Source of the DNA: Deltaproteobacteria bacterium
GTDB lineage: Bacteria; Myxococcota; Kuafuiibacteriia; Kuafuiibacteriales; Kuafuiibacteriaceae
DNA length: 64,000 nucleotides
Assembly: GCA_040218735.1 (NCBI GenBank)
Contig: JAVJQW010000012.1
Coordinates: 384,001 to 448,000 of the forward strand
Reading direction: 5' to 3'
The notes under the pieces were generated by a model. That model worked only from the letters and a program-made list of their open reading frames with translations. It was not told the origin of the DNA and did not search any database. A program made the translations under genes and the position numbers. Positions 8,483 to 56,826 of this stretch are shown here, in pieces. How positions within the stretch are numbered: the first letter of the stretch is position 1; each line of letters begins with the position of its first letter.

Positions 8483-11400
8483 GTGCTCGGCGCTGCGCTG
8501 ACGGCCGTGACGCTGACGGCGATCGCGTTCAATCCGAACTGGCCTCCGGACCGGACCGACCTGCCGGCGGAGGCGTTCGCGCGCCCCGACGCGATGCCCG
8601 ACGACCCCGAGTTCGCGCCCGGGGTCGACGGCTGCGGCGGTCAGCACGGCCTCTACGGCTTCGTCCCGGACTGCGCGTCCAACGTCGCCGAGCCGCGCGT
8701 CGGCAGCGCCGTGGATCGCGCGTGGGTCTGGACGACCGGGCACCCCTCCGTGGTCATCGCGCCGCTCGGCGACGGCGTGGACTGGAGCGACGCGGACCTC
8801 GTCGGTCGGTGGGCGCTCGACCCGGGTGAGGTGCCCGCGCCCGAGACGAGCTCGGTCGCGGTCGGCCACGACGTGAACGGCGACGGGGCCTTCGACGTCC
8901 GCGACTACACCAACGCGACGGGGACCGTGGCCCCCACGCTGGACCGCGTGATCGACGCGACGCTCCTTGCGCGCGCAGACCGCGGCGACGTCAACGGAAA
9001 CGGGTTGCTCGATCCGCAAGACATCTTGCGCATCTTCTCGAACGGCGTCGACGACGATGGGGACGGCTACGTCGACGACATCGCCGGCTGGGATCACGTG
9101 GACGACGACAACGACCCCGGCGTCGTCGGTGGCGCGTCGCGCGCCGCGCGAACGATCGCCGGCCAGGCGAACAACGGCATCGGCGGCGCGGGGGTGTGCC
9201 CGGACTGTCGACTCCTCCCCCTGCGCGTGGCACGCCGCGGACGCGCCTTCGCGAACCCGCTCGCGCTCGCGCTGCGCTACGCGAGTGACCAGGGCGTCAC
9301 GGTCGTCGCGTCGTTCGTGGAGGCGCTCGAAGCCACCGCGCTCCTGGCGGCGGCCACGAACGACGCCATCGACGAGGGTGTCTTGATCGTCGCCGCGGCG
9401 GGCGTCGGTCCGCGCCGCCCCGTCGCATGGGATCCGGACCGCGTGCTGTTCGTCGGCGGCGTGGGTTACGACGCCGACGACGCGCGGGACGCCACGACCT
9501 CCCTCGCACCGGATCCCTGCGCGGGGTTCGGTGCTCACCTCGCGCTCGCCGGCCCGGGGCGTTGTGACGAAGGCGGCGCCGCGGTGGTCGCGGGGGTCGC
9601 GGCGCTGGTCGCCTCGGCGGCGCGCGGGATTCCGGAGCGGGGCGTCGCTCCGATCGCGGTCGGGCCCGACGCGTTGCGCACGCTCCTCACGTCGAGCGCG
9701 GAGGACGTGCGGCCGGAGGAGACGGAGGCCCCCGCGCTGAGCCCCGCGACCGCGACGCGACGCGGGTGGGACGAACGCACCGGCGCCGGCCGCGTGGATG
9801 CGCTCGCGGCCATCGAAGCGCTCGTCCGGCGCGAGCTGCCCAGCGCGGCGCGCATCACGACGCCGCCGTGGTACGCGGTGATCGATCCGACGACCACGAA
9901 CCGGCTCCGCGTCGCCGGGCCCGTCGAAGTCACCGACGGCGAGCGTGTCACGTGGACCCTTGCGGCGGCTGCGGGCGCCGAGCCCGAGCTCGACACGTTC
10001 CAAACCATCGCGAGCGGGACGATCGAGACCTCTTCCGAGGTCGAGGGTGAGCTCGACGTGATCGGCCTCTTCGCGGACACGGCTGCGGCGGCGCGGACGC
10101 TCGGCGCCTACCAGGTGACGGTGCAGCTGAGCACCCGACGCACGATGGACGGTGAAGCGATCGTCGGCGAGACGCGGCGGGCGTTCTCCGTGCACCGAGA
10201 CCTCGCGCTCCTCCCCGGCTACCCTGTGGACGTCGGCGCGGGCGTGGTCAGCGGACCGCGCGTCGTGGAGCTCGACGGCGCGCCGCACGTCGTGGTCGCG
10301 ACGGTCGACGGGGAGCTGCTCGCGTACGATCGCTTCGGCGAACGCTCCGAGCTGCTGAACGTGCAGACGCCGACGTCGACGCGAACCGGGGCGCGCGAGG
10401 TGATCTTCGCGACGTTCTCCGCGGCGATGGACGACGGGCCGTGGTTCGTCGTCCGCGGGCTGCAAGGTACGTTGACGGTCGTGGATCCGTCGGGGACCTC
10501 ACGGACGATCGTCGAGGCGTCCGGGTTCGGCGCCACGTCGTCCCCCGCGCTGTTCGATCTCGACGGCGACGGCGCGTTCGAGATCATCACGTCACGCGGC
10601 TTCGACGTGTTCGTACGACGACGGGACGGGGCGGTCGTGGACGGTTGGCCGCAGCGTGTGGACGGCGCATCCGGGACCCCGTCGATCGGTGACGTCGATG
10701 GGGACGGCGCCGCGGAGATCGTCGTGGCGACGGCGACGCAGATCTACGTGTTCGAAGCGGACGGAACGCTCACCGACGACGCGCCGCTCCGCCTGCCGGT
10801 CCCGGACGTCGCTCCGCCGGCTCGTTTCTTCGCACCGTCCGCCGCGTTGGGAGATCTCGACGGCGACGGGCGCCTCGACATCGTCGCGCCCGTGCTCGGC
10901 GGCGCCGCGGTCCAGGTCGACACCGGCGCGCGCACCGTGACCACGGCGCGTTCGACCTCGCGCGGCGTGGACGTCGCGGCCGAGGGCCCCCCGCTCGTCG
11001 GAGCGACGAACGCCGTGGCGCTGGGCCGCATCGCCGGCGACAGCCCGAGCACGGTGCTGATGCTCGCGTCGGTGCCGACCCTCGGGGGCCTCGGGGCGGC
11101 GGAGGTCGCGGAGCGCGCGGTGGGTTCGTTCGACGATGACGGCGACCTCGAGACCGGCTTCCCGCGCGCGATCGAAGGCGGCTCGGAGCTCGATGTGCTG
11201 CTCGCGGACATCGACGGCGACGGCCGACCAGAGCTCCTCTTCTCGGAAGCCGACCGCCTCCGCGCGGTCGCCTACGACGGCTCGCGCCCGCCCGGGTTCG
11301 CCAAGCTCACCGGCGACGAGGTCGTGGCGACGCCCGTCGTCGAGGACCTCGACGGCGATGGGTTGTTGGAGCTCGTCGCGGTCACCCGCACCGGTCGCCT

Positions 11401-42047: not shown

Positions 42048-43676
42048 TCATTCTTTTTCTTCGTCCGAGGGCGGGACGTGGGTGACGCGCGGGAGCTCCA
42101 CCAAGATCTTCGTGCCCTCTTGCTCGGAGGACGTCGCCCAGGCCGTACCGCCGTGGGCGATGGCGACCGCGCGCACGATGTACAGGCCGAGGCCCAGGCT
42201 CTTCGCAGCCTTCTTGCTCGAAGCGCGCTTGCGCGACTCCAGCGGCTCGAAGAGCGTCGGCAGCACCTCCTCGGGGACCGGCTCGCCGGTGTTGTGCACC
42301 GACAGCGTGACACGATCTCCGTCACCGTCCGCGGCGATCGTGACCGTGCTCCCCGGCGGCGAGTACGCGAAGGCGTTGTGCAGCAGGTTCGTCATCACCT
42401 GCGAAAGTCGGTCGGCGTCCCAGCGCCCCGCGAGGTCGCCCGACGTCTCGACGACCAGCTCGTGCTCGTCGAAGAGGCTCTTCGTCTCCTTCGCGATGTG
42501 CCGCACCAGCGTGCCCAAGTCGAGCGCCGTCGGCGTCACCGGGAGGCGACCGCCGAGGCTGCTGCGCGCGAAGTCGAGGAGGTCCTGCACGAGACGCCCC
42601 GCGCGATCGACGGACGAGCGAATGCGATCCGTCGTCTTCAGCTGCTGCGGGTTGAGCTCCCCGAACTCGGGGAGGAGCTGCGCCGCCGTCGTGACGACCT
42701 GCAGCGGGCTGCGCAGGTCGTGGCTCACGATGCCGATCAGCTGCTGCTGGAAGAAGATCTGTTCCTTCGCCCGCTCCGCTTCGCGACGACGCATCGTCAC
42801 GTCCGCGACCACACCGATGCCGGCGCCGTCCGGGTTGTCGTGACGCCCGGCGTAGAGGCGCGCCGAGAGCCAACGGTTCTGCACGGTGCGGAGCTCGATC
42901 GAGGTGTCGCCCATCGTCTCGAGCACGTCCGTGAGCTGGCGGCGAACGTCGTCCCGGTCGCTCGGGAGCACCCGCTGCGTGAGGGCGTCGAGATTTTCGA
43001 TCGTCTCGGCTCCGAACAACTGCAGCGCGAGGTCGTCACACTCGACCGCCCCGTCTTTGCGCCAGACGAACGTACCGAGCCCCGCGAGCTCGACCGCGAG
43101 CGCGAGCTTCTTCTCGCTCTGCGCGAGCGCCTGCTCCGCGTGCACCAACCCCTGAACCGTGTGGAGCAACGCGTCGTTCTGCTCGCGCATGTCCTCGAGC
43201 AGATCACTCGTCTGAAACGCCGGCTCCGTCGCAGACGACGGCAAGGAGGCGTGCGCGGGCGTGGCTAGCGGGGCCTTGTCGACGTACTTCTTCAGCTCGA
43301 CGCGCGTCCCCGACGGCGCGGTCTGCACGGACATCTCGTCGACGAGCGCACGTGTTCCGGCGAGTCCGCGACCGAGCCCGCGCTCCGACGTCGCGTCCCC
43401 GGCGAGCGCTGCGTCGAGATCGTCGATCCCCGGACCGTCGTCTTCGATGCACGCGACGACCGCGGGGCGCCCTTCCGCCGCGTGTTGCAGCTCGAGTCGT
43501 CCGTTCGATGCGTACAGGAGCGCGTTGCGCGCGATCTCCGAGACCGCCGTTGCGAAGCGTGTCTGGTCGAGGAGCTTGAGCCCCGCGTTCCGCGCGTACC
43601 GGCGTGCGAGGCGGCGGGCGGCGACCACGTTGGCCGCGGAGTCGATGATGATCGTCCGGTGATCTTCCTTGCTCAT
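42048..43676 (-). CDS. Histidine kinase with N-terminal RsbT-like GHKL domain and PAS
   Basis: ATAVSEIARNA...DDGPGI...GLGRGL (RsbT-like), a PAS-like segment, VSHDLRSPL, NLLHNA and GLGLGLYI. Confidence 0.9.
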   Translation of the reverse strand: MSKEDHRTIIIDSAANVVAARRLARRYARNAGLKLLDQTRFATAVSEIARNALLYASNGRLELQHAAEGRPAVVACIEDDGPGIDDLDAALAGDATSERGLGRGLAGTRALVDEMSVQTAPSGTRVELKKYVDKAPLATPAHASLPSSATEPAFQTSDLLEDMREQNDALLHTVQGLVHAEQALAQSEKKLALAVELAGLGTFVWRKDGAVECDDLALQLFGAETIENLDALTQRVLPSDRDDVRRQLTDVLETMGDTSIELRTVQNRWLSARLYAGRHDNPDGAGIGVVADVTMRRREAERAKEQIFFQQQLIGIVSHDLRSPLQVVTTAAQLLPEFGELNPQQLKTTDRIRSSVDRAGRLVQDLLDFARSSLGGRLPVTPTALDLGTLVRHIAKETKSLFDEHELVVETSGDLAGRWDADRLSQVMTNLLHNAFAYSPPGSTVTIAADGDGDRVTLSVHNTGEPVPEEVLPTLFEPLESRKRASSKKAAKSLGLGLYIVRAVAIAHGGTAWATSSEQEGTKILVELPRVTHVPPSDEEKE

Positions 43677-44677
43677 CAGCTCATCCCTCTTCGAATCACC
43701 GCGATGGAAGCGTCGTCCGTGCGACGTTCGTGGTCACGGTAGTAGAGCGCAGCGATCGTCGACGCGCGACGCGCGATCAAGCCGGGGAACGAACGCGGCT
43801 CGCGGATCTGGCGCACGCCGTCGGAGTGGAGCACGCAGACGTCGTCCGCTCCGAACGCGATGGTGTCGGTCTTCAGTCTTCGCAACGCGGAGCCGGCCGT
43901 ACCGTGCGTCGCGGCGATTCGGGTGTCGCGCTCCGCACCGAGGACGAAGACGTCGATGTTACCGAGCGTGCAGATTCGAACGTCTTCGCCGGAGAACGTC
44001 GCCACGCCGACCACCGCGCCCCGGGCGCCGCGGAGGGCCTCGTGGAGCGCGCGCACGGTCGACTCCGGCTCGGGATCCTCGACGGCGTCGAACGCCGCGA
44101 TCGCCTGGTCCGCGATCTCCGCCGCGCGGCGCCCGTGACCGAGGCCGTCCACGACACACACCGTGAAACGCTCGGGCGTGATGGTGCGGTACGCGATGGC
44201 GTCCCCCGAATGGGCCTCGCCGGGGTACGCACGGACCAAGCCACCGACGTCGTAGACCGCGTTCGTACGGGGCGTTCGTGCGGAAGCCGCGAGCACCGTG
44301 TCGACGACGGTCCCGCGCTCCGGTGCGGACGCGATGTCCGACTCCGTCGACAGACGCAGCACCGTGCCGAGGCCGTGGCCAGGGGTGTCCGCGGTCGAGT
44401 AGCCGTCGCGCGCGCAGCGCTCGACGTTGTCCATGCCGGGGCCCTGGTCGAAGACCGTGAACCGAACGGTGTCGCCCTCGCGGACGACCAGCGCCTCTCC
44501 GCCTCCTCCGTGCACGACGGCGTTGGTGCACGCTTCGGTGACGACGAGATCCATCTCCCCGATCCGCGCGGCCGTGAAGCCGAGCTGGAGCCCGAGCGCG
44601 CGCGTCGCTGCACGCACCGCAGCGGCCGCGCTCTGATCGCGGACCGGAATCGTTCGACGGAGCCCGACGCGGGTCAT
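43676..44677 (-). CDS. GHKL-PP2C (SpoIIE) fusion phosphatase, RsbX-like
   Basis: TEACTNAVVHG and DQGPG, then SGD, VVDGLGHG, LHSDGV and TDDAS PP2C motifs. Confidence 0.88.
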   Translation of the reverse strand: MTRVGLRRTIPVRDQSAAAAVRAATRALGLQLGFTAARIGEMDLVVTEACTNAVVHGGGGEALVVREGDTVRFTVFDQGPGMDNVERCARDGYSTADTPGHGLGTVLRLSTESDIASAPERGTVVDTVLAASARTPRTNAVYDVGGLVRAYPGEAHSGDAIAYRTITPERFTVCVVDGLGHGRRAAEIADQAIAAFDAVEDPEPESTVRALHEALRGARGAVVGVATFSGEDVRICTLGNIDVFVLGAERDTRIAATHGTAGSALRRLKTDTIAFGADDVCVLHSDGVRQIREPRSFPGLIARRASTIAALYYRDHERRTDDASIAVIRRGMS

Positions 44678-45078
44678 GCTCGACCGTACACCGTGGCCGC
44701 GACGTAGAGTCCAGTCGGGGAGCGGGGACGGACCGCGAACTCGTCGGCCAGTCGCCGCGAGCCGCCCAGGCCCAGACCGAGCCCGCCGGCCGTCGAAAAG
44801 CCCTTCTCGAACGCCCTGTCCAGGTCCGCGATGCCCGGACCCTCGTCTTCGAACGTGAGCTCCAGGCCTCGGCGCGCTCCGTCCTGGACCACGCGCCAAC
44901 GGCACACGCCACCGCCCGCGTGCACGAGGACGTTCCGCGCGAGCTCACTCGCGATGGTGAGCGCGCGTGTCTTCTCGAACGTGGACAGACCGATCGAATG
45001 CGCGGCCGCCCCGACCGCGCTCCGCACGCGCGAGAGGTCCGCGCTCGACTCGATCCGAACGCGCGATGGGCTGGCTAT
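44674..45078 (-). CDS. rsbT: Stressosome switch kinase RsbT
   Basis: ASELARNVLVHAGGG, FEDEGPGIAD and GFSTAGGLGLGLGGSRRLADEF. Start uncertain: ATA at 45078, next GTG at 45027. Confidence 0.88.
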   Translation of the reverse strand: MASPSRVRIESSADLSRVRSAVGAAAHSIGLSTFEKTRALTIASELARNVLVHAGGGVCRWRVVQDGARRGLELTFEDEGPGIADLDRAFEKGFSTAGGLGLGLGGSRRLADEFAVRPRSPTGLYVAATVYGRA

Positions 45079-45434
45079 GTCGCGCAGAGGGATCGGAGCT
45101 TCTCCATACCGCGATCCACGTTGAGCGCCGTGTGGATCCCGTCCAGCGTCACGCCGAGCTCCACGAGGGTCATCGCGACCTCCGGCTTCACCCCGACCAG
45201 CACGGTCTGCGCGCCGAGGATCCGCGACATCTTCGCGAGGTCCCCGAGGAGACGCCCGGCGAAGGAGTCGACGACGTCGAGCCCGGCGATGTCGATCAGC
45301 ACGCCCTGGCAGCTCGTCTTCTCGATCTGGTGGAGCAAGTCGTCTTGCAAGCGCAGCGCGAGCTCGTCGTGCATATCGATCTGCACGCTCACGAGGAGGA
45401 TGTCGCCCACGCGGAGGATCGGGATGCGGTCCAT
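45075..45434 (-). CDS. rsbS: Stressosome STAS protein RsbS
   Basis: MDRIPILR, LIDIAGLDVVDSF with the phospho-Ser, and GVKPEVAMTLVELG. Confidence 0.93.
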   Translation of the reverse strand: MDRIPILRVGDILLVSVQIDMHDELALRLQDDLLHQIEKTSCQGVLIDIAGLDVVDSFAGRLLGDLAKMSRILGAQTVLVGVKPEVAMTLVELGVTLDGIHTALNVDRGMEKLRSLCAT

Positions 45435-45436
45435 CG

Positions 45437-46279
45437 CTACCCCTCCTTGACGACCCGATAGCCCATCCGCTCGATCGCGAACGCGAGCGCGGACCGCAAG
45501 CTGGATTGCGTCTCGATATCGCCGAGGTCAACGCCGAGCGTGACCATCGTCTGCGCGATCTGCGGACGTACGCCGGAGATCACACATCGCGTGCCCATCA
45601 AGCGCGCCGCCGACACCGTCTTCACGAGGTGCTGCGCGGTCACGGAGTCGACGGCCGGCACGCCAGTGATGTCGAGGATCGCGACCTCGGACTCACGCTT
45701 CACGATCTCTTCGAGCAAGGTCTCCATCACCTGCTGCGTGCGGGATGAGTCGAGGACGCCGATGATCGGGAGGACGAGGATTCGATCCCACACCTCGACG
45801 ACCGGCGTGGACAGCTCGAGCACTTCCTCCCGCTGGCGAGAGATGATCTCGTCGCGCTCCTCCAGGCTCACCGCTGCGACGTGCAGCCCGAGCTGGTCGA
45901 AGATCGACGTGGTGAGTCGTAGCTCCTCGGCGAGCGCCGCGCGGGACCCCAGCTCGGTCACCATGAGCGAGAACAACGCCTGCTTGAACGAAAGGACGAA
46001 CATCGCGGTGTCGACGGGCGACACGCCGAGCCGAGACCACGCCCGCGCGATGTCGGCGGTGACGGCTCTCAAGTCGTCCCATTCGTCGCCGTCGTACTCG
46101 GCGATCCCTTTGGCCATCGCGCGGTGCGCGCCGTCGATGAAGACGACGGAGCGCTCGCGGCGCTCCCGCGGCCCGACGAGGTCGGTGCGTACGGCGTCAT
46201 CCTTCACCTGGAACGACAGCCACTTTTCGAGGAGCACGTCCTCGCGGTCTCGTATGAGTTTTCCGATCGTCGTGGGCAC
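45437..46279 (-). CDS. rsbR: Stressosome scaffold RsbR (N-terminal helical sensor plus STAS)
   Basis: ELSTPVVEVW, LPIIGVLDSSR, ILDITGVPAVDS and SGVRPQIAQT motifs. Confidence 0.93.
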   Translation of the reverse strand: MPTTIGKLIRDREDVLLEKWLSFQVKDDAVRTDLVGPRERRERSVVFIDGAHRAMAKGIAEYDGDEWDDLRAVTADIARAWSRLGVSPVDTAMFVLSFKQALFSLMVTELGSRAALAEELRLTTSIFDQLGLHVAAVSLEERDEIISRQREEVLELSTPVVEVWDRILVLPIIGVLDSSRTQQVMETLLEEIVKRESEVAILDITGVPAVDSVTAQHLVKTVSAARLMGTRCVISGVRPQIAQTMVTLGVDLGDIETQSSLRSALAFAIERMGYRVVKEG

Positions 46280-46365: not shown

Positions 46366-46881
46366 TCAGAACTTGAACGTTGCACCGACGCGGCCTTCGA
46401 TCGGGATGGCCGTCGAAGGGGTCACGTACGGGCTGAAGTTGAGCTCGCCGTGGAGGAGGATCACGTCGGCGACCTCGATCTCCAGGCCACCGCCGACCGT
46501 GACGCCCAGGACGAGGTCGGCGTCGCCGCCCGGGAAGAGGATGGGCGCAGAGAGTTTTCCGTAGAGCCAGTCGAAGGGGAACACCTTCGCCTGCGGGCGG
46601 AACCCGAGGAACGTGCTCTGCGCGCGCGGGTAGACGTCCGGCTCGTCGATACCGAACACCAGCGGAATCTCCAACCGGAGCATCCCGATGTCCCAGCCCG
46701 GCCCGACGTCGAACGTGACCGGACCCCGGTCCGATGCGATGTCGTCGCTCGCGGCGAGCATGAACGAGGTGCCCGCCGAGGCCTGCACCGTGATGTCCGC
46801 GCGCGCCTCGTTGGCGACGCCGAGCGCGGCGAGGGCGCCGAGCGCGATGAGAGGGATGCGGATTCGGGTTCGGTGCGTCAT
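46366..46881 (-). CDS. Small outer-membrane beta-barrel protein
   Basis: Signal peptide ending EARA-D, alternating amphipathic strands, C-terminal GATFKF beta-signal. Confidence 0.75.
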   Translation of the reverse strand: MTHRTRIRIPLIALGALAALGVANEARADITVQASAGTSFMLAASDDIASDRGPVTFDVGPGWDIGMLRLEIPLVFGIDEPDVYPRAQSTFLGFRPQAKVFPFDWLYGKLSAPILFPGGDADLVLGVTVGGGLEIEVADVILLHGELNFSPYVTPSTAIPIEGRVGATFKF

Positions 46882-46975
46882 GAAAGTCTGTCTCCTCACT
46901 CTTCCTCAGTTGGTAGACGCGGGCCACTTTATGAGGCTGCGCCGTGCGATCGCGAACATGCGCCGGCGATCACGC

Positions 46976-47009: not shown

Positions 47010-47175
47010 CAACTTCCATACTCTTCGTGCGGCAGCAGGGAAGCCGGTGAAATTCCGGCGCGGTCCCGCCACTGTCAGCGATTCGGCCACGTTCGGGGCG
47101 TAAGCGCCCAGCCACTCGGTCACACCGGGGAAGGCGAACGCGGCAACAGGTCGCGAGCCAGGATATCTGCTCCGT
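47010..47175 (+). ncRNA. Cobalamin (B12) riboswitch
   Basis: AGGGAAGCCGGTGAAATTCCGGCGCGGTCCCGCCACTGT core, GCCACT...GGGAAGGC and B12-box GAGCCAGGATATCTGC. Ends are approximate. Confidence 0.93.
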
Positions 47176-47298
47176 GCGTTTTTCCATCCGGTGGTCCCGC
47201 GAGGTTTCGGGCGAGGGTGAAACGGCGAGACGCCGCTTCTTCTCTTCGAACCTCACGAGCTCATCGGCGCCGGCGGATCAACCGGCGAAGGAGCGAAC

Positions 47299-48378
47299 GT
47301 GAATCGTCTTCGAATCAGCCTCCCCCTCGTGATCGCGCTGGCCGCCGCCTGCGGTGGCACCGAGAACCCCCTACCGCCCAATCCGTCCGGATCCCTGGAG
47401 GTCGCCGGAGCCTACGGCTCCGCCTTCGGCGAGGAGACCATCTCCGCGACGATGTGGGGCGCGACGACGATCGTGGAGTTCGACAACGACGCGAACTTCG
47501 CGATCACGCAGAACGCGGCGGACGACATGTTCAACCCGTCGGCGTTCAACCGCATCGTGTGGACGGAGCCCGACGCCAAGGGCGGGTTCTACTACTGCTT
47601 CGAGGTCTTCGGGCAGGCGACCGCCGAAGAGGCGAAGGCCGCGACCGAGATGGCGGACGCGGCCGACCCGGCGACGGGCGGGTGCGGCGGCTTCCCGTGG
47701 ACGCAGCTGTATCACGCGATCGAGATCGAGGGGCGCTACCACAGCAACTTCGGCGGCGTGGAGATCGTCTCGCACGAGCAGTTCTCGTTCATGACGGTGG
47801 TGGAGTTCGACAACGACGCGAACTTCGCCATCACGCAGAGCCCGGCCGACGACATGTTCAACCCGAACAAGTTCAGCAAGATCGTCTGGACGGAGCCGGC
47901 CAACGGCGGGTTCTTCTACTGTCAGGTCACGTTCGGCGAGGACACCGCCGAGGCCGCCAAGAACACGACCGAGATGGCGGACGACAGCAACCCGACCGTC
48001 GACGGGTGCAGCGGGTTCCCGTGGACGGAGCTCGGCCCGACGTTGGAGATCGAGGGCGAGTACGACAGCAACTTCGGCGGGACCGAGACGATCACCTCCG
48101 ACCTTTGGACCTCGTACGACGCGAGCGTCGTGCGCGAGTACGACAACGACGCGAACATCGCCTACCTGCAGCTCCCCGAGGACGCGATGTTCAACCCCGA
48201 CACCTTCGCGAAGGTGGTGTGGACGGAGCCGGACGGCGGCGCGTTCTACTACTGCTGGGTCGACTTCGGGTACGCGACGCTCGACGAAGCCAAGACGAGC
48301 ACGCAGACCTGGGACGCGAGTGATCCGGACAACTCTGGCTGCGGGGGCTTTTCGTGGACCAAGCTCACCGCGCGCTGA
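47299..48378 (+). CDS. B12-riboswitch-controlled lipoprotein made of three 108-aa tandem repeats
   Basis: SD AAGGAG plus GTG; lipobox LAAAC; repeats start at 47395, 47719 and 48043. Confidence 0.88.
   Translation: MNRLRISLPLVIALAAACGGTENPLPPNPSGSLEVAGAYGSAFGEETISATMWGATTIVEFDNDANFAITQNAADDMFNPSAFNRIVWTEPDAKGGFYYCFEVFGQATAEEAKAATEMADAADPATGGCGGFPWTQLYHAIEIEGRYHSNFGGVEIVSHEQFSFMTVVEFDNDANFAITQSPADDMFNPNKFSKIVWTEPANGGFFYCQVTFGEDTAEAAKNTTEMADDSNPTVDGCSGFPWTELGPTLEIEGEYDSNFGGTETITSDLWTSYDASVVREYDNDANIAYLQLPEDAMFNPDTFAKVVWTEPDGGAFYYCWVDFGYATLDEAKTSTQTWDASDPDNSGCGGFSWTKLTAR
47395..48366 (+). repeat. Intragenic triple repeat, 324-bp period
   Basis: EFDNDANFAITQ/EYDNDANIAYLQ, MFNP, VWTEP, FYYC/FFYC and GCxGFxWT recur three times. 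Confidence 0.9.
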
Positions 48379-49146: not shown

Positions 49147-52100
49147 ATGCCGCGCGTCGACCGACGGCGTTTCGAGGCGAGCTTCGCCCACCGACAGGTC
49201 CGTGTGGACCGTCTTCCGCGGAACCTCGTCCGCAGCCTCGAGGCGCATGGCGTCAGCCGCGCCGATCTGGAGCGCATCGCCGGTGACGACCACGTCATCC
49301 AGGGCGCCGAGTTCAACCAGCTCTACGAAGCGTTGGCGACCCGGACGCAAGGCGGCCAGCGCGTCGACACCCGGGTCAGCGAGGAACTGTTCGCCCAGCT
49401 GACCGCGCGCGCCGAGCGCAGCCCGTCGAGCACGCCGGAGCCGACGCCCACCGCGACGGCGCGGAGCACGGGGATCGGAGGGCGTCGTTCGGCGCGGCCG
49501 GGCTCGGCCGCGGACGAAACCCCGCCCGGTGCGAACGGTGTCGGGGCGAACGGTGCGGCGGCGAACGGTGTCGGTACGAACGGAACGCCGGCGGTCGCGC
49601 AGCCCGCCGACCCGGGTGCGCCCGCGGCCGCGCAGCCCGAGACCGCGGCGCCCGAGGGTCCGCCGCCCCTCGCCGAGGGTTACAACCGGCGCGAGCGGCG
49701 CATCGGCCGCGAGGACGTCGTCACCCACGCGGTGCTCGACCCCGAGACGCAGCGGACGGCGGCGGCGCTCGCGGCGCTCCCGCCCGCGACCGAGGGGCGC
49801 CACACGCCGGTGCGTGCGTTCCTCGACGCGATCGAAGCGCGCGACGAGCGAGCGCGCCTCCTCGCGGAGGGTGACCGTCGCGGCGCCGGCGCCGTGACGC
49901 GCCCCGAGGGTGTGCCGGCCGACATCTGGAACGTCACGGCGGCGCTCGATCGACGCGGGATCAGCTCGACCGACGTCCAGTTCTACCTCGCGCACGGCAC
50001 ACTCCCGGATCTGCTGAACGAGGACGGCTCCGTCGCGATGCGCGGCGCGGACCGCCTCGCGGAGCTGGAGAACGCGGCGATCCGGCGCGGCAGCTGGACG
50101 GCGGTGAACACGTTCACGTTCCTGGTGCGGATGCGCCGGTCGTCGATGGCGGCGGAGCGCGAAGCGGCCGGGCGCGTGCTCGCGACGATCCCGGAGTCGG
50201 ATCCGAGGCACGCGCAGATCACCGCGGGGATCGAGCAGAGCCGACAGCTCGACACGCAGCTCGGGCGCAGCCTCCAGTCGATGTACCGCGCCGCCACCGG
50301 CGCCCGCGAGTCGACCGGGCGCGGGCTGATCGGTCGCGCCGACGATCTCAGCCGACAGGCGCGCGAAGCGCGAAGCGGCGGCGACGAGGCGCGCGCAGTG
50401 GAGCTCGAGCAACGCGCCCAGGGCCTTCGCGATCGCGGCGCGCAGATCACGCACGCGGAGGCGGAGTACCGCTCGTCGATGCGTTCGTACCGCGCCGACG
50501 CCGGACGTCTCTATCGCCTCTCCGCCGCCGCGCAGATCTCGACCGGCGAAGAGCAGGTCCGCGCGCTCGCGACGCAGACCGGCCCGCTCCCCGAAGCGCC
50601 GCCGGCCGTGCTCGGCAACGACGACGGCACGAACACCGGCAACGGCGTGCCCGGCGCCGAGCGCCTCCTCACCACCGCGCGCGCCGTCGACCCGACGGCG
50701 GGCACCGACGACACGCAGCTCGCGCTGGAAGGACGCCGCGCCGCGGCCGTCGGTGGCTTCCACCGCGCACACCTGGACCGCGGTGGTTACTTCGATCGCG
50801 TCGACCCCGAGACCGGCGAGGTCTCGACGCGTTCGTCGGGGCTCGCGCGGCACCGCGACCTCTACCTCGGCGCGCGCGTCGATCAGGCGAACGCGGCGAC
50901 CGGGCGCCTCGCGCTCGCGCGCGCGGAAGAACCAAGCACCGACCGCGACCTGCGCATCTCCTCTCTGGAGGCGGAGCGTCGCGGCGTCGCGGAGGAGCTG
51001 TCGCGTGATCTCGGGCAGTCCCTCGCGAGTGATCGCGCGGCGACCGACGCCCGTGCGCGCGTCCGTGATCTCGACGCGGCGGTCACGAGCGCCGACGAAC
51101 AGCGCGACGGCGCACGCACCGCGGCGCGCGACGCGGACAGCGGCGTCGACAACGCCGAGAGCAACGCCTACGCGCTCCTCGGCGACACACTCAAGACCGA
51201 CGGCGAGGCGCGCCGCGACCGCGAAGGTGTGTCGGACGCCCGCACCGTTCGCAGCATCGAGCGCGGGCGCCGCGACCTCGCGGTGGTCAACGCGCGCGAG
51301 ACGCGCGAGACCCGCGACCGCGCGGTCGACGCCGAACGTGTCGCGACCACGCAGGCCCAGCGCGACCGCGAAGACGCCGCGCGTGTGCTGCGCGCCGCGC
51401 AGCGCCTCGAGACCGGCGAGATCTCCGCGACGGTCCCGACGACGACCGAAGAAGGCTACCGCTTCGCGCGTGGGATGGCGGACCGAAGCGCGCGCGCCGA
51501 GACGAGCGCCCTGGACCGCGCGGCGCTGTCGATCCCCGAGAGCGCGCCCGCCGATCACCGCGACCGCCTCACGGTCGCGAGCCGCCGCGTGGACCTGTCG
51601 CGCTATTGGACGCGCAGCGCGGAGGGCGAAGCCGTCGCGCTCGGCGACGCCGGCCGGAGCGGTGCGACGGGACGCCTCGATCGTGCATCGCGGTTGATCA
51701 GTCAGTCCGACGCCACACGCCTCACCCTCGACGGCGGCTCGGACGCCCGGCTCGGCCTCGCGTCGGGGTTGGTCACCGCGCGCGCCGAGCTCGCGACGGC
51801 CGAGGGCGACTACCGACCCGACGTCGCGCGGCAGCAGCTCCTCGTCGCCGAGACGACCGTAGACGGCGACCTCGCCCTCGACCGCGATCGCGCCGGACGG
51901 GCCTACGGCGAGATCGGCGTCGCGGCGACCGCGGCGCTCGCGCGCAGCGAGTCTCGGTTCGACGCGATCCTCGACAGCGGCAACCACGTCCCCGGCGCAG
52001 CGGACGCGCTCTACCTCCAGGCGCATCGCATGTTCGACCCGGTGCCGTTCGTCGTCATGCCCCGCGGCATCCCGGACACGCCGGCGACACGCTCGGCGCG

Positions 52101-55100
52101 TGAGACCCTCGGGCGCTTCGACGCCGCGCTCGACCAGGTCGACGGGATGTTCACGGCGAGCCAGGCGCAGATCCGCAACGGCGCCGACTACGCGCTCGCG
52201 CGGACCCGCGGCCTCGGCCACAGCGAGATCGGCGCGGCGCAGGCGCAGGTCTCGACGGTGATCAGCGGCGGCGCGTGGGTCCTCTCCCTCGGCTTCTTCG
52301 ACATGAAGGAGGAGATGGCCGACGCGGGCGAGCACATGATTCGCCACCGCATGAGCTGGGTGCGCCAGGAGCGCGACAGGCTGGTTCGCGGCGCGGACCA
52401 CATGCGGGCGTCGTACGCCGCGGCGCGCACGGACGGGCGCGCGTTCGAGTGGCTGCACTCGGTGCGTATCATCTCCGACCGCAGCCGCGCGGACACGATG
52501 CCGCAGACCTACGGGCGCGCGTTCGTCACGATCGCCGAGCACATCCCGGACGACATGCGCTCGCGGATGGACTGGCAGACGTTCAACCGCATCGCGATCC
52601 GCGAAGGACACGTGCCGGTCGCCGCCGCGCTCTCCGGCAGCGTCCTCGGCTTCGAGCAGGCGATGGAGAACCTCTCCGACGATCGCATCATGGCCGTCAC
52701 CCCGGGCATGGCCGACGCGATCCAGTCGCAGGCCGACAGCCTCGAAGAGACCACCGACGGGATGATGTGGATCATCGGCATCAACACCGCGCTCGAGGTC
52801 GGCCTCGGGATCGTGTTGACCGGTGGCATCGGCTCGGTCGGCGCCGCGGCCGAGGGCGCGAACGCGCTCAACACCACGCGCACCGCGGCCTCCGCGATGA
52901 GCGCCGCGCGCAACGCACAGCTCGCGCTCCGCGCGATGGCGGCGCTACGCACGATGGGCACCGTCACCGTCGTCGGCGGCGGGATGATGGCGGCGAACTA
53001 CGGCGTCGGGAAGCTCGTCGGCCGCAACACCGGCGCCGCGCGCGGGTTCGAGGTGCTCACCAACTTCATCCCGATCGGCGCCGGGCAGCGCGCGGCGGGC
53101 ATCGTCGGTCACGCGGACGACGTCGCCGCGGCGGGGACCCGCCTGCAGCAGCTCCGTCGCGCGATGAGCTGGTCCCACGTGCGCAGCGCTTCGGCGTGGA
53201 GCCGCGCGCTGACGCCGGTCGCGCTCGGTAGCGCGCAGGCGTTCGGGACGACGGTCGCGACGCCGTGGATCGCGCAGCGGGTCGGCCTGGAGCGGAGTGA
53301 CCTCGGGCAGGCGGCGATCGGCCTCGGCCTCAACGTCATCTTCGCGGGTGGCATGGCGGCGGCCGTGCGTCCGCGCACCACCGCGACGGGTCTCGCGGAT
53401 CACCTCTCGGCCGCGATGGGCGAGCACGCGCCGTCGCGCCGCGCGCGCGGGCAGATGCGCACGGAGATCGAGACCTTCCTGCGCAACACGGAAGGTCGCG
53501 TGCCCACCGACGCCGAGGTCTCCGCGCTGAAGACACGTCTGCAAGAGCACATGGGCCTCGACGCCGCGACGCCCGACGCACCGGAGCGCGTCGCGATCGT
53601 CGACGGCGCGGTGGAGGCGCTCCGCATCGAGCGCGCCACGCAGCTGCACGCGGGTGCGTTCGACGATGGCACGACCCCGGCGCAGGCGCGTGACGCCGTC
53701 ATCGCCGCGGGTGACGCGCTCTACCAGGCGCGCGGCGGCGACGCGGGCGGCACGTCGCGACTCCAGGCGTACCGCGACGCCGCGATGACGATGAGCGAGC
53801 GCCTCGGCGGACAGGCCCGCGCGGCGTTCGAAGCCGGCGACACCGCGCGCGGCACCGCGCTGATGGAGCTGCGCCAGGTCGTCGGTGAGCGCGCGCTCGC
53901 GGCCGAGCTCGTGGAGGGTACGGCACGCGGCAACCCGAACGACGCGACGCTCTCCAATCCGACGAACCGCGCCAACGCCGAACGCATCCTCGCCGAGGAG
54001 CTCACCGCGGCGCGCACCGCGCTCGACGGCACCGAAGGCCCGGGCCTCGGCCAACGCGACGGCAGCTCGTTCTACGACGGGCTCGTCCGCCGCCTCCGCG
54101 AAGAGGGTGGCCTCTCCTCCGAAGCCGCGGAGACGGTGGTGCGCGGCGCACGCGACGAGCTCGTGCACCAGGCTGTCCTGCGGCACCTCGCCGCGGCGCA
54201 GGTGGAGGCGGGGCCGCGACCGCTGCGCAACAACGAGATCTCGCGCATCGCGACCGAGCTCGCGCAGCGCGCCGGCCTCCCGGACGCGCCGGCGTACGCG
54301 CGGTCGATCGTCGAGCAGCGGCCCGCGCTCGAGCGCTCCGGCTTCGTACGTCCGTCTTCGCGTCCGACGCTCGACGCCGCGATGATCGAGCAGCGCGCGC
54401 GCGCCGCGGCCGACGCGGACCCGTCGATCGCGCGGTTCATCGAACAGCACGGCCCGATCGCGGAGCGCCTCGTCGGTGAGCTCGGCGCCGAGCGGTTCAT
54501 GCAGGCGTTCGGCGACGGCGACATGGTGTCGTTCGAAGCGCGACGCCTGATCGAGCTGCCGCCGGAGCGCATCAACGAGCTGATCGACGTCGCCCAGGAC
54601 GACCCGGCGCGTGTGCAGGGCATCATGCAGGCGCTCGGCGTCGGTGAGTCGCGCTCGGTCGTGCTGCGTGCGTTGAACGAAGTCGGCGTGGAGCCGGCGG
54701 CGCGCCTCGCGGAGATCGGCGCTCAGTCCCCGCGCGGCCTCGGCTACCTCGCCGCGCGCGAGGGTGGCGCGACCCGCGTCCTGCAACGCCTCGCGACCGA
54801 GCCGAACGCCCTCGCCGCGCAGGCCCGGCGGATGGAGGCGCGCATCTTCATGCGCGCGAACGACGGCACCTACCTGGTGCGCGGCGATCCGCCCGCGCCG
54901 ATCCCGGCGCCGACGCGCCGACAGCTCGAAGGCCTCGCGCGACGTGCCGGCGTCGACCCGGCGGTGCTCCGCGATCCGACCGCGCACCCCGCCGAGATGG
55001 CGCGCGTGATGGATCAGATGCGCAGCGAGATGCCGGCCGACATGCGCGCCGCGCTCGACCGCGAGCTGGCCGGGCGACGTTTCATCGACGAGGTCCACTA

Positions 55101-56826
55101 CCAGGAGGCGTTCGACGCGGGCGTCAACAACCCGGAGCACCGCTACGGGCGCGTCGACTTCGAAGCGTGGCAGCGCGCCGAGTCGATCATGATGGGCGCC
55201 GCCGACCGCGGCGAGCCGCTCACCGCCGACACGTTGATCGCCGCGCACCGCGCCGCGAGCGAAGGCATCCTCCCCGAGCCGCGCCGCGGCCTGATCCGCT
55301 CCGCCCCCGCCGAGACCGCGTTCCAGGGTGGCGACGGCCCGATGGGCCAGCGCGTCGTCACGCAGGCGGAGTTCGAGACGATGCGCGCGAACCCGCACCT
55401 CAACGTGCACGACCTCGGCGCCTCCGACGGCGGCCGTCTCGTCATCGTCGAGTACACCTCCCCCGCCGAGGTTCGCGCCAAGCTCGACGTCGCGCTCCGA
55501 CGCATCGACGAACGCCTCGCCGCCGGCGAGGACCCCGTCACGGTCGCCGCCGACGCGCAGCGCGAGTTCGTCAGCATCCACCCGTTCCTCGACGGCAACG
55601 GCCGCATGAGCCGACTCGTGATGGACTACGTGCTCCGTCGCGAAGGCCTCTCGCCATCCGTCGTGCGCGACCCGAACCTCGACACGCAGGTGTCGTCGGC
55701 CGCGTGGCGCGCCGAGGTCCGGCGCGGGATGCAGCGCCCATTCGAGGCGACGATGAACGCGTGGAACCGTGCGCAGCGCGGTCGTCCGCCACCCATCCGC
55801 GCGAACGCGGATCCGGTCGGGCCGTCGCCGGTCGGCGACTCGGCCCACGCACGCCGCGACACCCTCGGATGGACCGGTCAGCCCACAGCGACGCCGCCCG
55901 CGGGCGCCGAGCACCTCGGTGTCATCCACCGCGGCATGCAGGCGATGTCGCCGCGGTCGCGTCGGCTGATCGAGTCGTACCTGCAGCGCGCGGAGAGCGG
56001 TCCGCCCGAGCTCGTCGCACGGCGCGACGCACTCGCGACTCGGCAGCAACAGATCTGGCAGGAGCACGGTCGTCTCCTCGGCACGCCGGCCGATCAACTG
56101 CCCGCGCCGGATCGTGCGCGGCAAGAGGCGTTGCAAACGGAGCTCGCGACGATCAGCTCGGAGCGAACCACCGTCGACCGTGCGATCGGTGACGCGCAGC
56201 TCGCGGCGCGCCGGATGGCGATCGCGGAGATGCAGCGGGTTCGCGACGGGATGCGTCGACACGTCTCCGACGCCGAGTCGCGTCGCATCGCGGACGGGAT
56301 GCCGATTCACCCGTCGGCGGCCGCAGCCGCCGAACCGGCCCGCCTCCGTGCCTGGGTCGCGGACGCGCTGCAACTCATCCCGCACGAGATCGGCGCGGAG
56401 TCGATCTCACTGGTGAGTGATCGCCCACGCGCCGACGCGCGCCGCAGCGGCACGCTCAACATCGGCGAAGACATCACGCGAGGCATCACGTTCCACGAGA
56501 TCGGGCACTACATCGAGTTCACCAACCCCGAAGTCGCCGCCGCCGCGCGCGCGTGGGTGATGGAGCGAAGCCGGATGGCCAACGGCGGCACGGCGCAGCG
56601 GGGAGAGATGCGGGACCTCGCGGGCTCCGACTTCTACGACCGCGGTGAGATGGCGTTCGAGGATCACTTCGACAACCCATACATCGGGCGTGACTACGGC
56701 GAAGGTGGATCGACGGAGGTCGTGAGCGTCGGGATGGAGTACTTGACGTCGCCGGAGCGAATGCTCCAGCTCTACCAACGCGATCCGGAGCACTTCTTCT
56801 TCATGATGGGAGTCTTGGAACCATGA
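49147..56826 (+). CDS. Giant 2559-aa multidomain toxin-like protein with Fic domain and C-terminal HExxH zincin
   Basis: GAGGGG plus ATG; no signal peptide; hydrophobic helices at about 52250-53370; HPFLDGNGRMSR at 55579; HEIGH at 56494 with downstream TEVVSVGME. Confidence 0.88.
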   Translation: MPRVDRRRFEASFAHRQVRVDRLPRNLVRSLEAHGVSRADLERIAGDDHVIQGAEFNQLYEALATRTQGGQRVDTRVSEELFAQLTARAERSPSSTPEPTPTATARSTGIGGRRSARPGSAADETPPGANGVGANGAAANGVGTNGTPAVAQPADPGAPAAAQPETAAPEGPPPLAEGYNRRERRIGREDVVTHAVLDPETQRTAAALAALPPATEGRHTPVRAFLDAIEARDERARLLAEGDRRGAGAVTRPEGVPADIWNVTAALDRRGISSTDVQFYLAHGTLPDLLNEDGSVAMRGADRLAELENAAIRRGSWTAVNTFTFLVRMRRSSMAAEREAAGRVLATIPESDPRHAQITAGIEQSRQLDTQLGRSLQSMYRAATGARESTGRGLIGRADDLSRQAREARSGGDEARAVELEQRAQGLRDRGAQITHAEAEYRSSMRSYRADAGRLYRLSAAAQISTGEEQVRALATQTGPLPEAPPAVLGNDDGTNTGNGVPGAERLLTTARAVDPTAGTDDTQLALEGRRAAAVGGFHRAHLDRGGYFDRVDPETGEVSTRSSGLARHRDLYLGARVDQANAATGRLALARAEEPSTDRDLRISSLEAERRGVAEELSRDLGQSLASDRAATDARARVRDLDAAVTSADEQRDGARTAARDADSGVDNAESNAYALLGDTLKTDGEARRDREGVSDARTVRSIERGRRDLAVVNARETRETRDRAVDAERVATTQAQRDREDAARVLRAAQRLETGEISATVPTTTEEGYRFARGMADRSARAETSALDRAALSIPESAPADHRDRLTVASRRVDLSRYWTRSAEGEAVALGDAGRSGATGRLDRASRLISQSDATRLTLDGGSDARLGLASGLVTARAELATAEGDYRPDVARQQLLVAETTVDGDLALDRDRAGRAYGEIGVAATAALARSESRFDAILDSGNHVPGAADALYLQAHRMFDPVPFVVMPRGIPDTPATRSARETLGRFDAALDQVDGMFTASQAQIRNGADYALARTRGLGHSEIGAAQAQVSTVISGGAWVLSLGFFDMKEEMADAGEHMIRHRMSWVRQERDRLVRGADHMRASYAAARTDGRAFEWLHSVRIISDRSRADTMPQTYGRAFVTIAEHIPDDMRSRMDWQTFNRIAIREGHVPVAAALSGSVLGFEQAMENLSDDRIMAVTPGMADAIQSQADSLEETTDGMMWIIGINTALEVGLGIVLTGGIGSVGAAAEGANALNTTRTAASAMSAARNAQLALRAMAALRTMGTVTVVGGGMMAANYGVGKLVGRNTGAARGFEVLTNFIPIGAGQRAAGIVGHADDVAAAGTRLQQLRRAMSWSHVRSASAWSRALTPVALGSAQAFGTTVATPWIAQRVGLERSDLGQAAIGLGLNVIFAGGMAAAVRPRTTATGLADHLSAAMGEHAPSRRARGQMRTEIETFLRNTEGRVPTDAEVSALKTRLQEHMGLDAATPDAPERVAIVDGAVEALRIERATQLHAGAFDDGTTPAQARDAVIAAGDALYQARGGDAGGTSRLQAYRDAAMTMSERLGGQARAAFEAGDTARGTALMELRQVVGERALAAELVEGTARGNPNDATLSNPTNRANAERILAEELTAARTALDGTEGPGLGQRDGSSFYDGLVRRLREEGGLSSEAAETVVRGARDELVHQAVLRHLAAAQVEAGPRPLRNNEISRIATELAQRAGLPDAPAYARSIVEQRPALERSGFVRPSSRPTLDAAMIEQRARAAADADPSIARFIEQHGPIAERLVGELGAERFMQAFGDGDMVSFEARRLIELPPERINELIDVAQDDPARVQGIMQALGVGESRSVVLRALNEVGVEPAARLAEIGAQSPRGLGYLAAREGGATRVLQRLATEPNALAAQARRMEARIFMRANDGTYLVRGDPPAPIPAPTRRQLEGLARRAGVDPAVLRDPTAHPAEMARVMDQMRSEMPADMRAALDRELAGRRFIDEVHYQEAFDAGVNNPEHRYGRVDFEAWQRAESIMMGAADRGEPLTADTLIAAHRAASEGILPEPRRGLIRSAPAETAFQGGDGPMGQRVVTQAEFETMRANPHLNVHDLGASDGGRLVIVEYTSPAEVRAKLDVALRRIDERLAAGEDPVTVAADAQREFVSIHPFLDGNGRMSRLVMDYVLRREGLSPSVVRDPNLDTQVSSAAWRAEVRRGMQRPFEATMNAWNRAQRGRPPPIRANADPVGPSPVGDSAHARRDTLGWTGQPTATPPAGAEHLGVIHRGMQAMSPRSRRLIESYLQRAESGPPELVARRDALATRQQQIWQEHGRLLGTPADQLPAPDRARQEALQTELATISSERTTVDRAIGDAQLAARRMAIAEMQRVRDGMRRHVSDAESRRIADGMPIHPSAAAAAEPARLRAWVADALQLIPHEIGAESISLVSDRPRADARRSGTLNIGEDITRGITFHEIGHYIEFTNPEVAAAARAWVMERSRMANGGTAQRGEMRDLAGSDFYDRGEMAFEDHFDNPYIGRDYGEGGSTEVVSVGMEYLTSPERMLQLYQRDPEHFFFMMGVLEP
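49531..49584 (+). repeat. 15-bp coding tandem repeat (ANGxx) x3.6
   Basis: gcgaacggtgtcggg / gcgaacggtgcggcg / gcgaacggtgtcggt / acgaacgga. Confidence 0.8.

Follow-up and report, generated by a model that had tools for sequence, protein, structure and literature searches.

The window analysed here, a stretch of 64,000 nucleotides from a bacterium of the phylum Myxococcota (contig JAVJQW010000012.1, positions 384,001 to 448,000 of the forward strand; GenBank assembly GCA_040218735.1), contains a cobalamin (vitamin B12) riboswitch that is followed by two overlapping genes, P0001 and P0002. With a probability of about 0.72, the riboswitch and the gene pair constitute a unit for extracytoplasmic corrinoid capture that would be induced by B12 starvation. 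Homologues of P0001, which encodes a predicted lipoprotein of three tandem repeats, follow riboswitch matches of the B12 clan at roughly 110 of about 139 loci in two phyla, and P0002, a gene missed by the initial annotation of this DNA, encodes a protein that, as modelled, shares the fold of the domain with which Bacteroides BtuH binds B12. The novelty appears to lie in the composition: a B12 capture system under riboswitch control in which one component is new and the other is a distant relative of a known one. The recurrence of repeat and BtuH-like genes as a pair suggests a B12-scavenging module that has not been described before.

A B12 aptamer followed by two predicted lipoprotein genes

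The aptamer was located at positions 47010–47188 (+) by the Rfam model RF00174 (75.8 bits, E 7.1e-17). The model is covered end to end (1–189) and the score is above the gathering score of 31.5 bits, in agreement with the clear B12 riboswitch reported initially. It is the sole Rfam match that reaches its gathering score in the 64-kb window, and the sole RF00174 match found in the 11.6-Mb host genome, where 150 of 642 candidates were scored. The aptamer end is separated from the start codon of P0001 by 110 nt. Direct reading of this leader (47189–47298, +), the putative expression platform, revealed a small GC hairpin at 47223–47235 followed by a CT-rich tract, and the sequence GAAGGAG at 47287–47293 ahead of the GTG start at 47299.

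The P0001 open reading frame (ORF; 47299–48378, +) encodes a predicted 359-aa lipoprotein with three modelled lipocalin-like β-barrel repeats, distantly related to the LIC13354 family. Its N-terminus, MNRLRISLPLVIALAAAC, comprises a hydrophobic segment and then Cys18, and the signal peptide read from the sequence would extend up to this putative lipid-anchor residue (47299–47352, +). The putative lipobox, read by eye, is ...LVIALAAAC(18)GG, with Ala at position -3 where the classic residue is Leu; a Cys after the hydrophobic segment was found in most full-length single-domain homologues (alignment A1). Repeats 1 (residues 31–140; 47389–47718, +) and 2 (residues 141–248; 47719–48042, +) were delimited by motifs and alignment A1, and repeat 3 (residues 249–359; 48043–48375, +) is the one that was modelled with AlphaFold2 and submitted to a structural aligner.

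The repeats are 108–111 residues long and carry the motifs FNP, VWTEP, YC and GCxGFxW at equivalent positions: FNP is at residues 78, 187 and 298, WTEP at 88, 197 and 308, and GCxGFxW at 128, 236 and 347, with DNDAN at 62, 171 and 282. Two Cys residues are present in every repeat. The mature protein contains 56 D and E against 12 K and R, and 49 of its 339 residues are F, W or Y. Thus, every detail that was checked in the earlier description of the first gene, as an acidic, aromatic-rich lipoprotein with three repeats of ~108 aa bearing these motifs, proved correct. As judged by a mutual identity of ~50%, the repeats are ancient and not a chance pattern.

No Pfam family was matched by P0001 at E≤1, hence the statement that the first gene is not btuB, btuF, metE, nrd or a cob/cbi gene stands. 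Assignments of P0001 as a btuB, btuF or cob gene were rejected on the same absence of a family match, and a B12-independent isozyme was rejected since the protein is a predicted secreted lipoprotein. None of 35 single-domain relatives (0/35) matched Pfam at E≤0.01, DUF4465 and the lipocalin families included. The initial annotation had called the family one that it could not name; this holds for Pfam, but a nearest name exists in NCBIfam, NF047669 'LIC13354 family exoprotein', which matches P0001 in three stretches with E 7.7e-27. The three repeats together sum to 94.7 bits against a curated cut-off of 130; 33 of the 35 single-domain relatives match the same model, single domains scoring at most about 43 bits. 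By these sequence scores, P0001 is a relative outside the curated family.

A word-indexed search found 188 relatives of P0001, and an exhaustive search found 941 cluster representatives at E≤0.001; those with names are few, and all are hypothetical proteins of Myxococcota metagenome-assembled genomes (MAGs). A related-locus search with P0001 as a single sequence found no relative, and a sequence search of the PDB with P0001 and the A1 profile found no related structure. Only two relatives exceed 630 aa, neither with a Pfam domain, and no informative fusion was seen among them. In 552 domain instances from 243 homologues both Cys residues are invariant (100%), and G99, W105, G5, A83, W60 and D91 are conserved in ≥90%. 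One, two, three, four, five and six repeats per chain occur in 40, 126, 51, 24, 1 and 1 of the 243 proteins, respectively, a distribution skewed by the length windows used in the homologue searches.

The AlphaFold2 model of repeat 3, obtained with the 35-sequence alignment A1, has a mean predicted local distance difference test score (pLDDT) of 95.9 and a predicted template modelling score (pTM) of 0.87. It is all-β, with eight to nine strands and a single short helix, and its long C-terminal loop carries D91...G99-C100-G-G-F103-x-W105; the most conserved positions (N35, P52, D91, G99-C100-G101, F103 and W105) lie in loops as well as in strands. The top structural match is Treponema pallidum Tp0751 (5jk2_A; Z 8.9, root-mean-square deviation (rmsd) 3.0, 89 residues). 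Lipocalin-like proteins of Bacteroides come next with Z 5.9–6.9, and Z is about 5 for classical lipocalins, for nitrophorin 2 and for a heme-bound plant lipocalin. As the aligner itself cautions that Z below 8 is common, the repeat is termed only lipocalin-like: the model suggests a small disulfide-pinned barrel of this kind, and no homology is claimed. The secondary structure of the model and the invariance of the Cys residues suggest that a C71–C100 disulfide would fasten this loop, with its conserved residues, onto the barrel. Lipocalin-like barrels bind tetrapyrroles in other families, nitrophorin 2 and the heme-bound plant lipocalin being among the matches. Atlas look-alikes of the homologue P0156 were unnamed clusters at ≤0.88 and a weak Lipocalin_4 lead at 0.76, and serve as leads only.

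P0002 (48354–49049, +; located as an ORF and characterised by NCBIfam and a structure model) overlaps the end of the P0001 gene by 25 nt and encodes a predicted BtuH-like lipoprotein of 231 aa with its own signal peptide and Cys, as read from the sequence. Pfam gave no family for P0002. Its distant relation to the LIC13355 family rests on a match to NF033170 'LIC_13355 family lipoprotein' with E 6.5e-10 and 38.7 bits, below the cut-off of 120. Twelve downstream neighbours of the repeat gene at other loci are 43–59% identical to P0002, and its relatives number at least 4459 among 8000 candidates scored.

The AlphaFold2 model of P0002 has a mean pLDDT of 76.8 and a well-modelled core at residues 44–231. 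It aligned with Bacteroides thetaiotaomicron BtuG1 (8blw_B, residues 388–660; Z 13.3, rmsd 3.5, 163 residues, 26% identity) and with BtuH2 (7biz_B, residues 316–593; Z 13.1, rmsd 3.2, 155 residues, 22% identity), and the next structural match was a carbohydrate-binding module at Z 7.5. Foldseek also ranked 8blw_B first (E 4.8e-5). As judged by these comparisons of the model, P0002 has the fold of the C-terminal globular domain of BtuH2 and BtuG1. According to the part of the source available, BtuH binds B12 via this domain, which corresponds to the matched ranges, and the B12-contact residues of BtuH2 are Tyr510, Trp511, Trp577, His476, Asn399 and Gln333 (Putnam et al., PMC8941943). As a fold relative of a known B12-binding domain, P0002 is the better-founded candidate binder of the pair, and it is probable that P0002 binds a corrinoid.

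Linkage of the repeat family to B12 riboswitches

A sample of 401 genomes of the phylum Myxococcota was searched with P0001 (set 1), and relatives were found in 48. Exclusion of three weak matches (E 2e-4 to 8e-4) that cover residues 2–93 only left the genome of the window and 44 others, the latter contributing 48 loci. The first 29 of these were scanned with Rfam, and 25 had RF00174. A whole-genome search of the 44 genomes with RF00174, in which 45 candidates were scored per genome under stricter filters, gave 70 matches, and these were assigned to loci by comparison of coordinates by hand and by script. At 37 of the 48 loci RF00174 lies on the same strand within 1 kb upstream, two of the matches being below the gathering score (27.0 and 26.9 bits), and at four more it lies 1.2–4.8 kb upstream with all intervening genes on the same strand. 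Thus, RF00174 precedes P0001 homologues at 41 of 48 loci overall. One further locus has a divergent riboswitch 1.8 kb off, and two are cut by a contig end. Where a genome has a single RF00174 match, this match precedes the repeat cassette in 21 of 22 cases; about 42 of all 70 matches do so.

Set 2 was obtained by a pattern scan with alignment A4, using one genome per species. The scan gave 68 loci, nine of them already in set 1, which left 59. RF00174 was found at gathering score, upstream and on the same strand, at 45 of the 59 (15/20, 16/20 and 14/19). Eight of the 14 misses have no upstream sequence, and six have the full 1.5-kb flank. Five of these six gave adjacent upstream matches of this clan, below threshold, in a permissive rescan, namely to RF01482 at L102 (41.2 bits) and L121 (33.2 bits) and to RF00174 at L089 (31.0 bits), L106 (30.6 bits) and L126 (25.5 bits).

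As three of the five rescued loci are spirochaete records, a sample of 42 genomes of the family Leptospiraceae was searched (set 3). The repeat domain is present in 29 of them, at 32 loci. With RF01482 and RF00174 at E≤0.05, a same-strand match was found within about 700 nt upstream at 27 of the 32 loci, with scores of 18.8–49.1 bits; two matches reach the gathering score of RF00174 and none that of RF01482. There are one to four such matches per genome of 2–7 Mb, and the chance of one falling upstream of a set 3 gene was estimated at ~3e-4 per gene. The Leptospiraceae matches are therefore weak singly but convincing as a group.

How often homologues follow Cobalamin elements was the check proposed initially, and the counts from the three sets bear out the expected link: in the sampled lineages the repeat family is among the most constant targets of B12 riboswitches.

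The elements that precede the LIC13354 homologues of Leptospiraceae (L102, L121, L126 and genomes G401–G444) are short and divergent, often matching only positions 24–97 of RF01482; an example is G422:C11:10270–10355, before a gene at 10582–11061. They may represent an unannotated variant of the B12 riboswitch. At L092, from the cultivable Lujinxingia vulgaris, and at L103 the riboswitch is located after two tRNA genes and a signal recognition particle (SRP) RNA gene. A cassette with riboswitch is also present in MAG records titled Klebsiella pneumoniae, Bifidobacterium breve and Enterobacterales (L117–L119, L125, L127 and L128), labels that seem doubtful for a gene of this kind.

Gene pairing, operon contexts and host metabolism

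Pairing was counted with local profiles from alignments A1 and A3. The repeat and BtuH-like genes are adjacent, overlapping or fused at 28 of 40 wide loci, where contig ends account for two of the other 12, and at 47 of the 59 loci of set 2. Both gene orders occur, the two are fused in a single ORF at L070 and L137, and the Leptospiraceae locus L121 also has the pair. At eight loci of set 1 (L041, L046, L054, L058, L060, L065, L066 and L071) there is a riboswitch with a repeat gene and no BtuH-like gene within 14–18 kb, and at L035 and L040 the riboswitch stands between the two genes, behind the BtuH-like gene and ahead of the repeat gene. Hence, the riboswitch targets the repeat gene itself, with or without the BtuH-like partner. 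L060 (G020:C25, 11158–12625, -) consists of two tandem units, each of a riboswitch and a single-domain gene, with RF00174 scores of 86.1 and 74.3 bits. In Lujinxingia records (L099, 357–857 and 1180–1821; L100) the order is repeat gene, riboswitch, repeat gene, BtuH-like gene.

In some lineages the cassette lies in btuB/btuF/btuC operons, which answers a further proposed check, whether homologues stand beside btuB. A gene for a TonB-dependent receptor is in an operon with the cassette at L039, L051, L062, L063, L065 and L070; a BtuF-like Peripla_BP_2 protein is encoded at L062 and L065, and FecCD at L063. The riboswitch at L051, L062 and L063 is followed by the receptor, a protein of 511–560 aa, the BtuH-like and repeat genes, and BtuF-like or FecCD. 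At L039, and alike at L037, the order is riboswitch, repeat gene, BtuH-like gene, TonB-dependent receptor and a 345-aa protein, and at L065 the repeat gene is followed by a 424-aa protein, the receptor and BtuF-like.

Two families that have no Pfam match recur beside the receptors. Members of the first have 511–560 aa and share 36–53% identity (L051:13531–15210(-), L062:9546–11078(-) and L063:7567–9156(+)), and those of the second have 345–374 aa (L037:9268–10371, L039:9357–10391, L056:16818–17921 and L070:9903–11024). Both families may be further parts of B12 uptake. A Rieske [2Fe-2S] protein of 146–158 aa is encoded after the cassette on the same strand at L035 (2293–2730), L040 (7504–7941) and L049 (7658–8131); we know of no role of small Rieske proteins in B12 uptake.

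The host genome, 96.5% complete at 11.6 Mb, encodes MetH (1760 bits), and MetE, CobS and CbiC were not found in it. Given this gene content, the host looks like a B12 auxotroph that would import B12 for MetH-dependent methionine synthesis. Its BtuB-like receptors score at most 204 bits, and no riboswitch was found within about 4 kb of the two best of them. CbiC was found in 0 of 45 genomes with a firm homologue of P0001 as compared with 26 of 401 in the whole phylum sample, a weak contrast that is confounded by kinship and carries no support value.

Around the unit in the window, Pfam assigned a stressosome-like cluster at 43676–46279 (-), composed of an RsbRD_N+STAS protein (45437–46279, -), a STAS protein (45075–45434, -) and a HATPase_c_2+SpoIIE protein (43676–44905, -). 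It is followed by a divergent ORF of 177 aa (46366–46899, -) with a signal-peptide-like N-terminus and no Pfam match. Downstream, an ORF of 2559 aa (49147–56826, +) has a Fic/DOC domain at residues 2025–2163 and no other Pfam match; there is no sign that it is part of the unit, and other loci have different genes at this place.

Proposed function, alternatives and comparison with known systems

In the proposed scheme, plentiful intracellular cobalamin would be bound by the aptamer and keep the unit off. When B12 is scarce, the riboswitch would open, and two lipid-anchored secreted proteins would be produced, one with small, disulfide-pinned β-barrels of lipocalin-like fold in a row of one to six (three in P0001) and the other a single-domain relative of the Bacteroides BtuH B12-binding domain. 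The BtuH-like domain, and perhaps the barrels too, would bind cobamides, whether in the periplasm or on the cell surface, and hand them to a TonB-dependent transporter of the BtuB type. Some lineages encode such a transporter in the cassette operon itself, and the present host would encode it at another place in its genome. That the cassette serves acquisition of B12 or other corrinoids is very probable. Whether the repeat domain itself binds corrinoid, as its modelled fold allows, is close to an even question, with the balance tilted slightly to the negative. The binding of three corrinoids per chain and the picture of a predator that harvests B12 from lysed prey, both put forward in the initial annotation, are speculative. 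The fuller proposal is put forward tentatively, the odds being somewhat against it: the ~108-aa barrel would be a new corrinoid-binding fold with one to six sites per chain, joined to a minimal domain of the BtuH type in a capture relay that arose in, or was taken up by, Myxococcota and Leptospirales independently of the accessory Btu proteins of Bacteroides. As a corollary, LIC13354 and LIC13355, hitherto regarded as an exoprotein and an adhesin, would be B12-acquisition proteins under a short riboswitch variant that is not yet annotated.

Several observations weigh against the capture unit. In the window it stands alone, with no transporter gene. A terminator-like site is present in the leader (47189–47298) but occurs at least as often in shuffled sequences, and the leader fold is no better than that of shuffles (z -0.53), with no clear terminator or sequestering helix. 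RF00174 was not found at four loci of set 1 (G020:C22, G028:C19, G121:C53 and G001:C16), L137 has no B12-clan match upstream even in the permissive rescan, and nearly all of the riboswitch matches in Leptospiraceae are under the curated thresholds. The fold matches of the repeat are middling, with a best Z of 8.9 and nothing at E≤0.001 in a Foldseek search of the repeat 3 model against the PDB, and a HMMER search of the PDB with the A3 profile retrieved neither 7biz nor 8blw at E≤10. Finally, Leptospira LIC_13355 is reported to bind host components, and the part of that report available mentions no B12 role (PMC11891782).

The last report, together with the spirochaete lipoprotein Tp0751 as top structural neighbour of the repeat, is what would be expected if the two proteins were adhesins of the surface or had another envelope function, with an incidental link to the riboswitch. 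This is hardly credible in view of the link at some 110 loci in two phyla, the location of the genes in btuB/btuF operons and the match of the partner P0002 to BtuH at Z 13. A different role within B12 acquisition deserves more weight, namely that the repeat protein binds no corrinoid and serves the BtuH-like binder as a scaffold, spacer or docking partner, like the PKD/Ig-like domains of Bacteroides BtuH2, for which N-terminal Ig-like domains are described in the available part of PMC8941943. The repeats might distance the binder from the membrane or dock it on the transporter; the tight coupling of the two genes (28/40 and 47/59 loci, with the fusions at L070 and L137) and the spacer-like variation in repeat number from 1 to 6 would fit. 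However, eight loci have a riboswitch and a repeat gene with no BtuH-like gene nearby, at L035 and L040 the riboswitch precedes the repeat gene only, and the loop residues and the disulfide are conserved well beyond the needs of a spacer, which makes a scaffold unlikely.

The barrels could also bind another B12-related ligand, such as cobalt or calcium ions, cobinamide-type precursors or the lower-ligand base. Mature P0001 is highly acidic (56 D and E against 12 K and R), lipocalin-like barrels favour small ligands, and cobalt transporters are, as is generally known, also under B12 riboswitches; calcium is used by BtuH2 and BtuB in B12 binding, according to the available parts of PMC8941943 and PMC13616437. 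Cobalt or precursors would, however, be of little use to a host in which CobS and CbiC were not found; the lack of CbiC matches in the firm-homologue genomes (0/45 against 26/401) points the same way, as a weak contrast between genomes that are not independent, and the neighbours are B12 transport genes rather than cobalt transporters. Such a ligand is accordingly quite improbable, and capture of corrinoids outside the cytoplasm is preferred as the function of the unit.

If this function is correct, two families that have no Pfam entry gain a testable role, the BtuH fold is extended beyond Bacteroidota and Firmicutes, and the repeat becomes a candidate for a new B12-binding module of small size, with possible use in probes or as an affinity reagent. 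In Leptospira, two host-induced envelope proteins could be re-read as nutrient-acquisition proteins.

Among known proteins of similar fold, Tp0751 (5JK2) and the Bacteroides proteins 4GZV, 4QRL and 3HTY are, like the repeat, small lipid-anchored barrels. They share only 2–10% identity with it and have neither tandem repeats nor the conserved disulfide-pinned C-terminal loop. To our knowledge, none of the four binds B12.

The locus numbers of Leptospira LIC13354 and LIC13355 are consecutive, as are the genes of the window pair; both matches are under the curated cut-offs, and the Leptospira proteins are single-domain, in contrast to the three repeats of P0001. In host-adapted L. interrogans, LIC13354 and LIC13355 are up 3.77- and 3.72-fold, and the candidate small RNA (sRNA) LIC1nc80 (chromosome 1, 4,015,037–4,015,237) is up 4.39-fold, according to the portion of PMC3953431 available (Table 5 for the sRNA). 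LIC1nc80 could be the leader of the LIC13354/LIC13355 pair. A literature search, with subscription journals mostly outside it, found nothing that links the repeat family or LIC13354/LIC13355 to B12.

BtuH2 (7BIZ) and BtuG1, or 'BtuGH' (8BLW chain B), resemble P0002 in the fold of the C-terminal B12-binding domain, the likeness being in the fold of the model only, with no sequence link by HMMER. Both BtuH and, by prediction, P0002 are lipoproteins, and their genes lie under a B12 riboswitch next to genes for B12 transport. P0002 differs in being a bare domain of ~190 residues as compared with ~270, without the PKD or propeller part. BtuH homologues are mainly from Bacteroidota, with three from Firmicutes, in the part of PMC13616437 available, whereas the P0002 type is found in Myxococcota and Leptospirales. 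P0001, the repeat protein, bears no resemblance to BtuH.

BtuG, BtuK and BtuJ offer the closest parallel in function: as far as the available parts of the sources go (PMC12751083, PMC13616437), they are accessory lipoproteins under riboswitch control, which bind extracellular cobamides and deliver them to BtuB, and in B. thetaiotaomicron BtuG, BtuH, BtuJ and BtuK all bind B12 in a multi-lipoprotein relay. BtuG and BtuK are β-propellers and BtuJ is a DUF4465 jelly roll; the P0001 repeat, modelled as a disulfide barrel of ~108 aa, is neither. What is known of accessory lipoproteins for B12 capture comes almost entirely from gut Bacteroides, and the cassette points to a widespread and differently built system in soil and aquatic Myxococcota and in Leptospirales.

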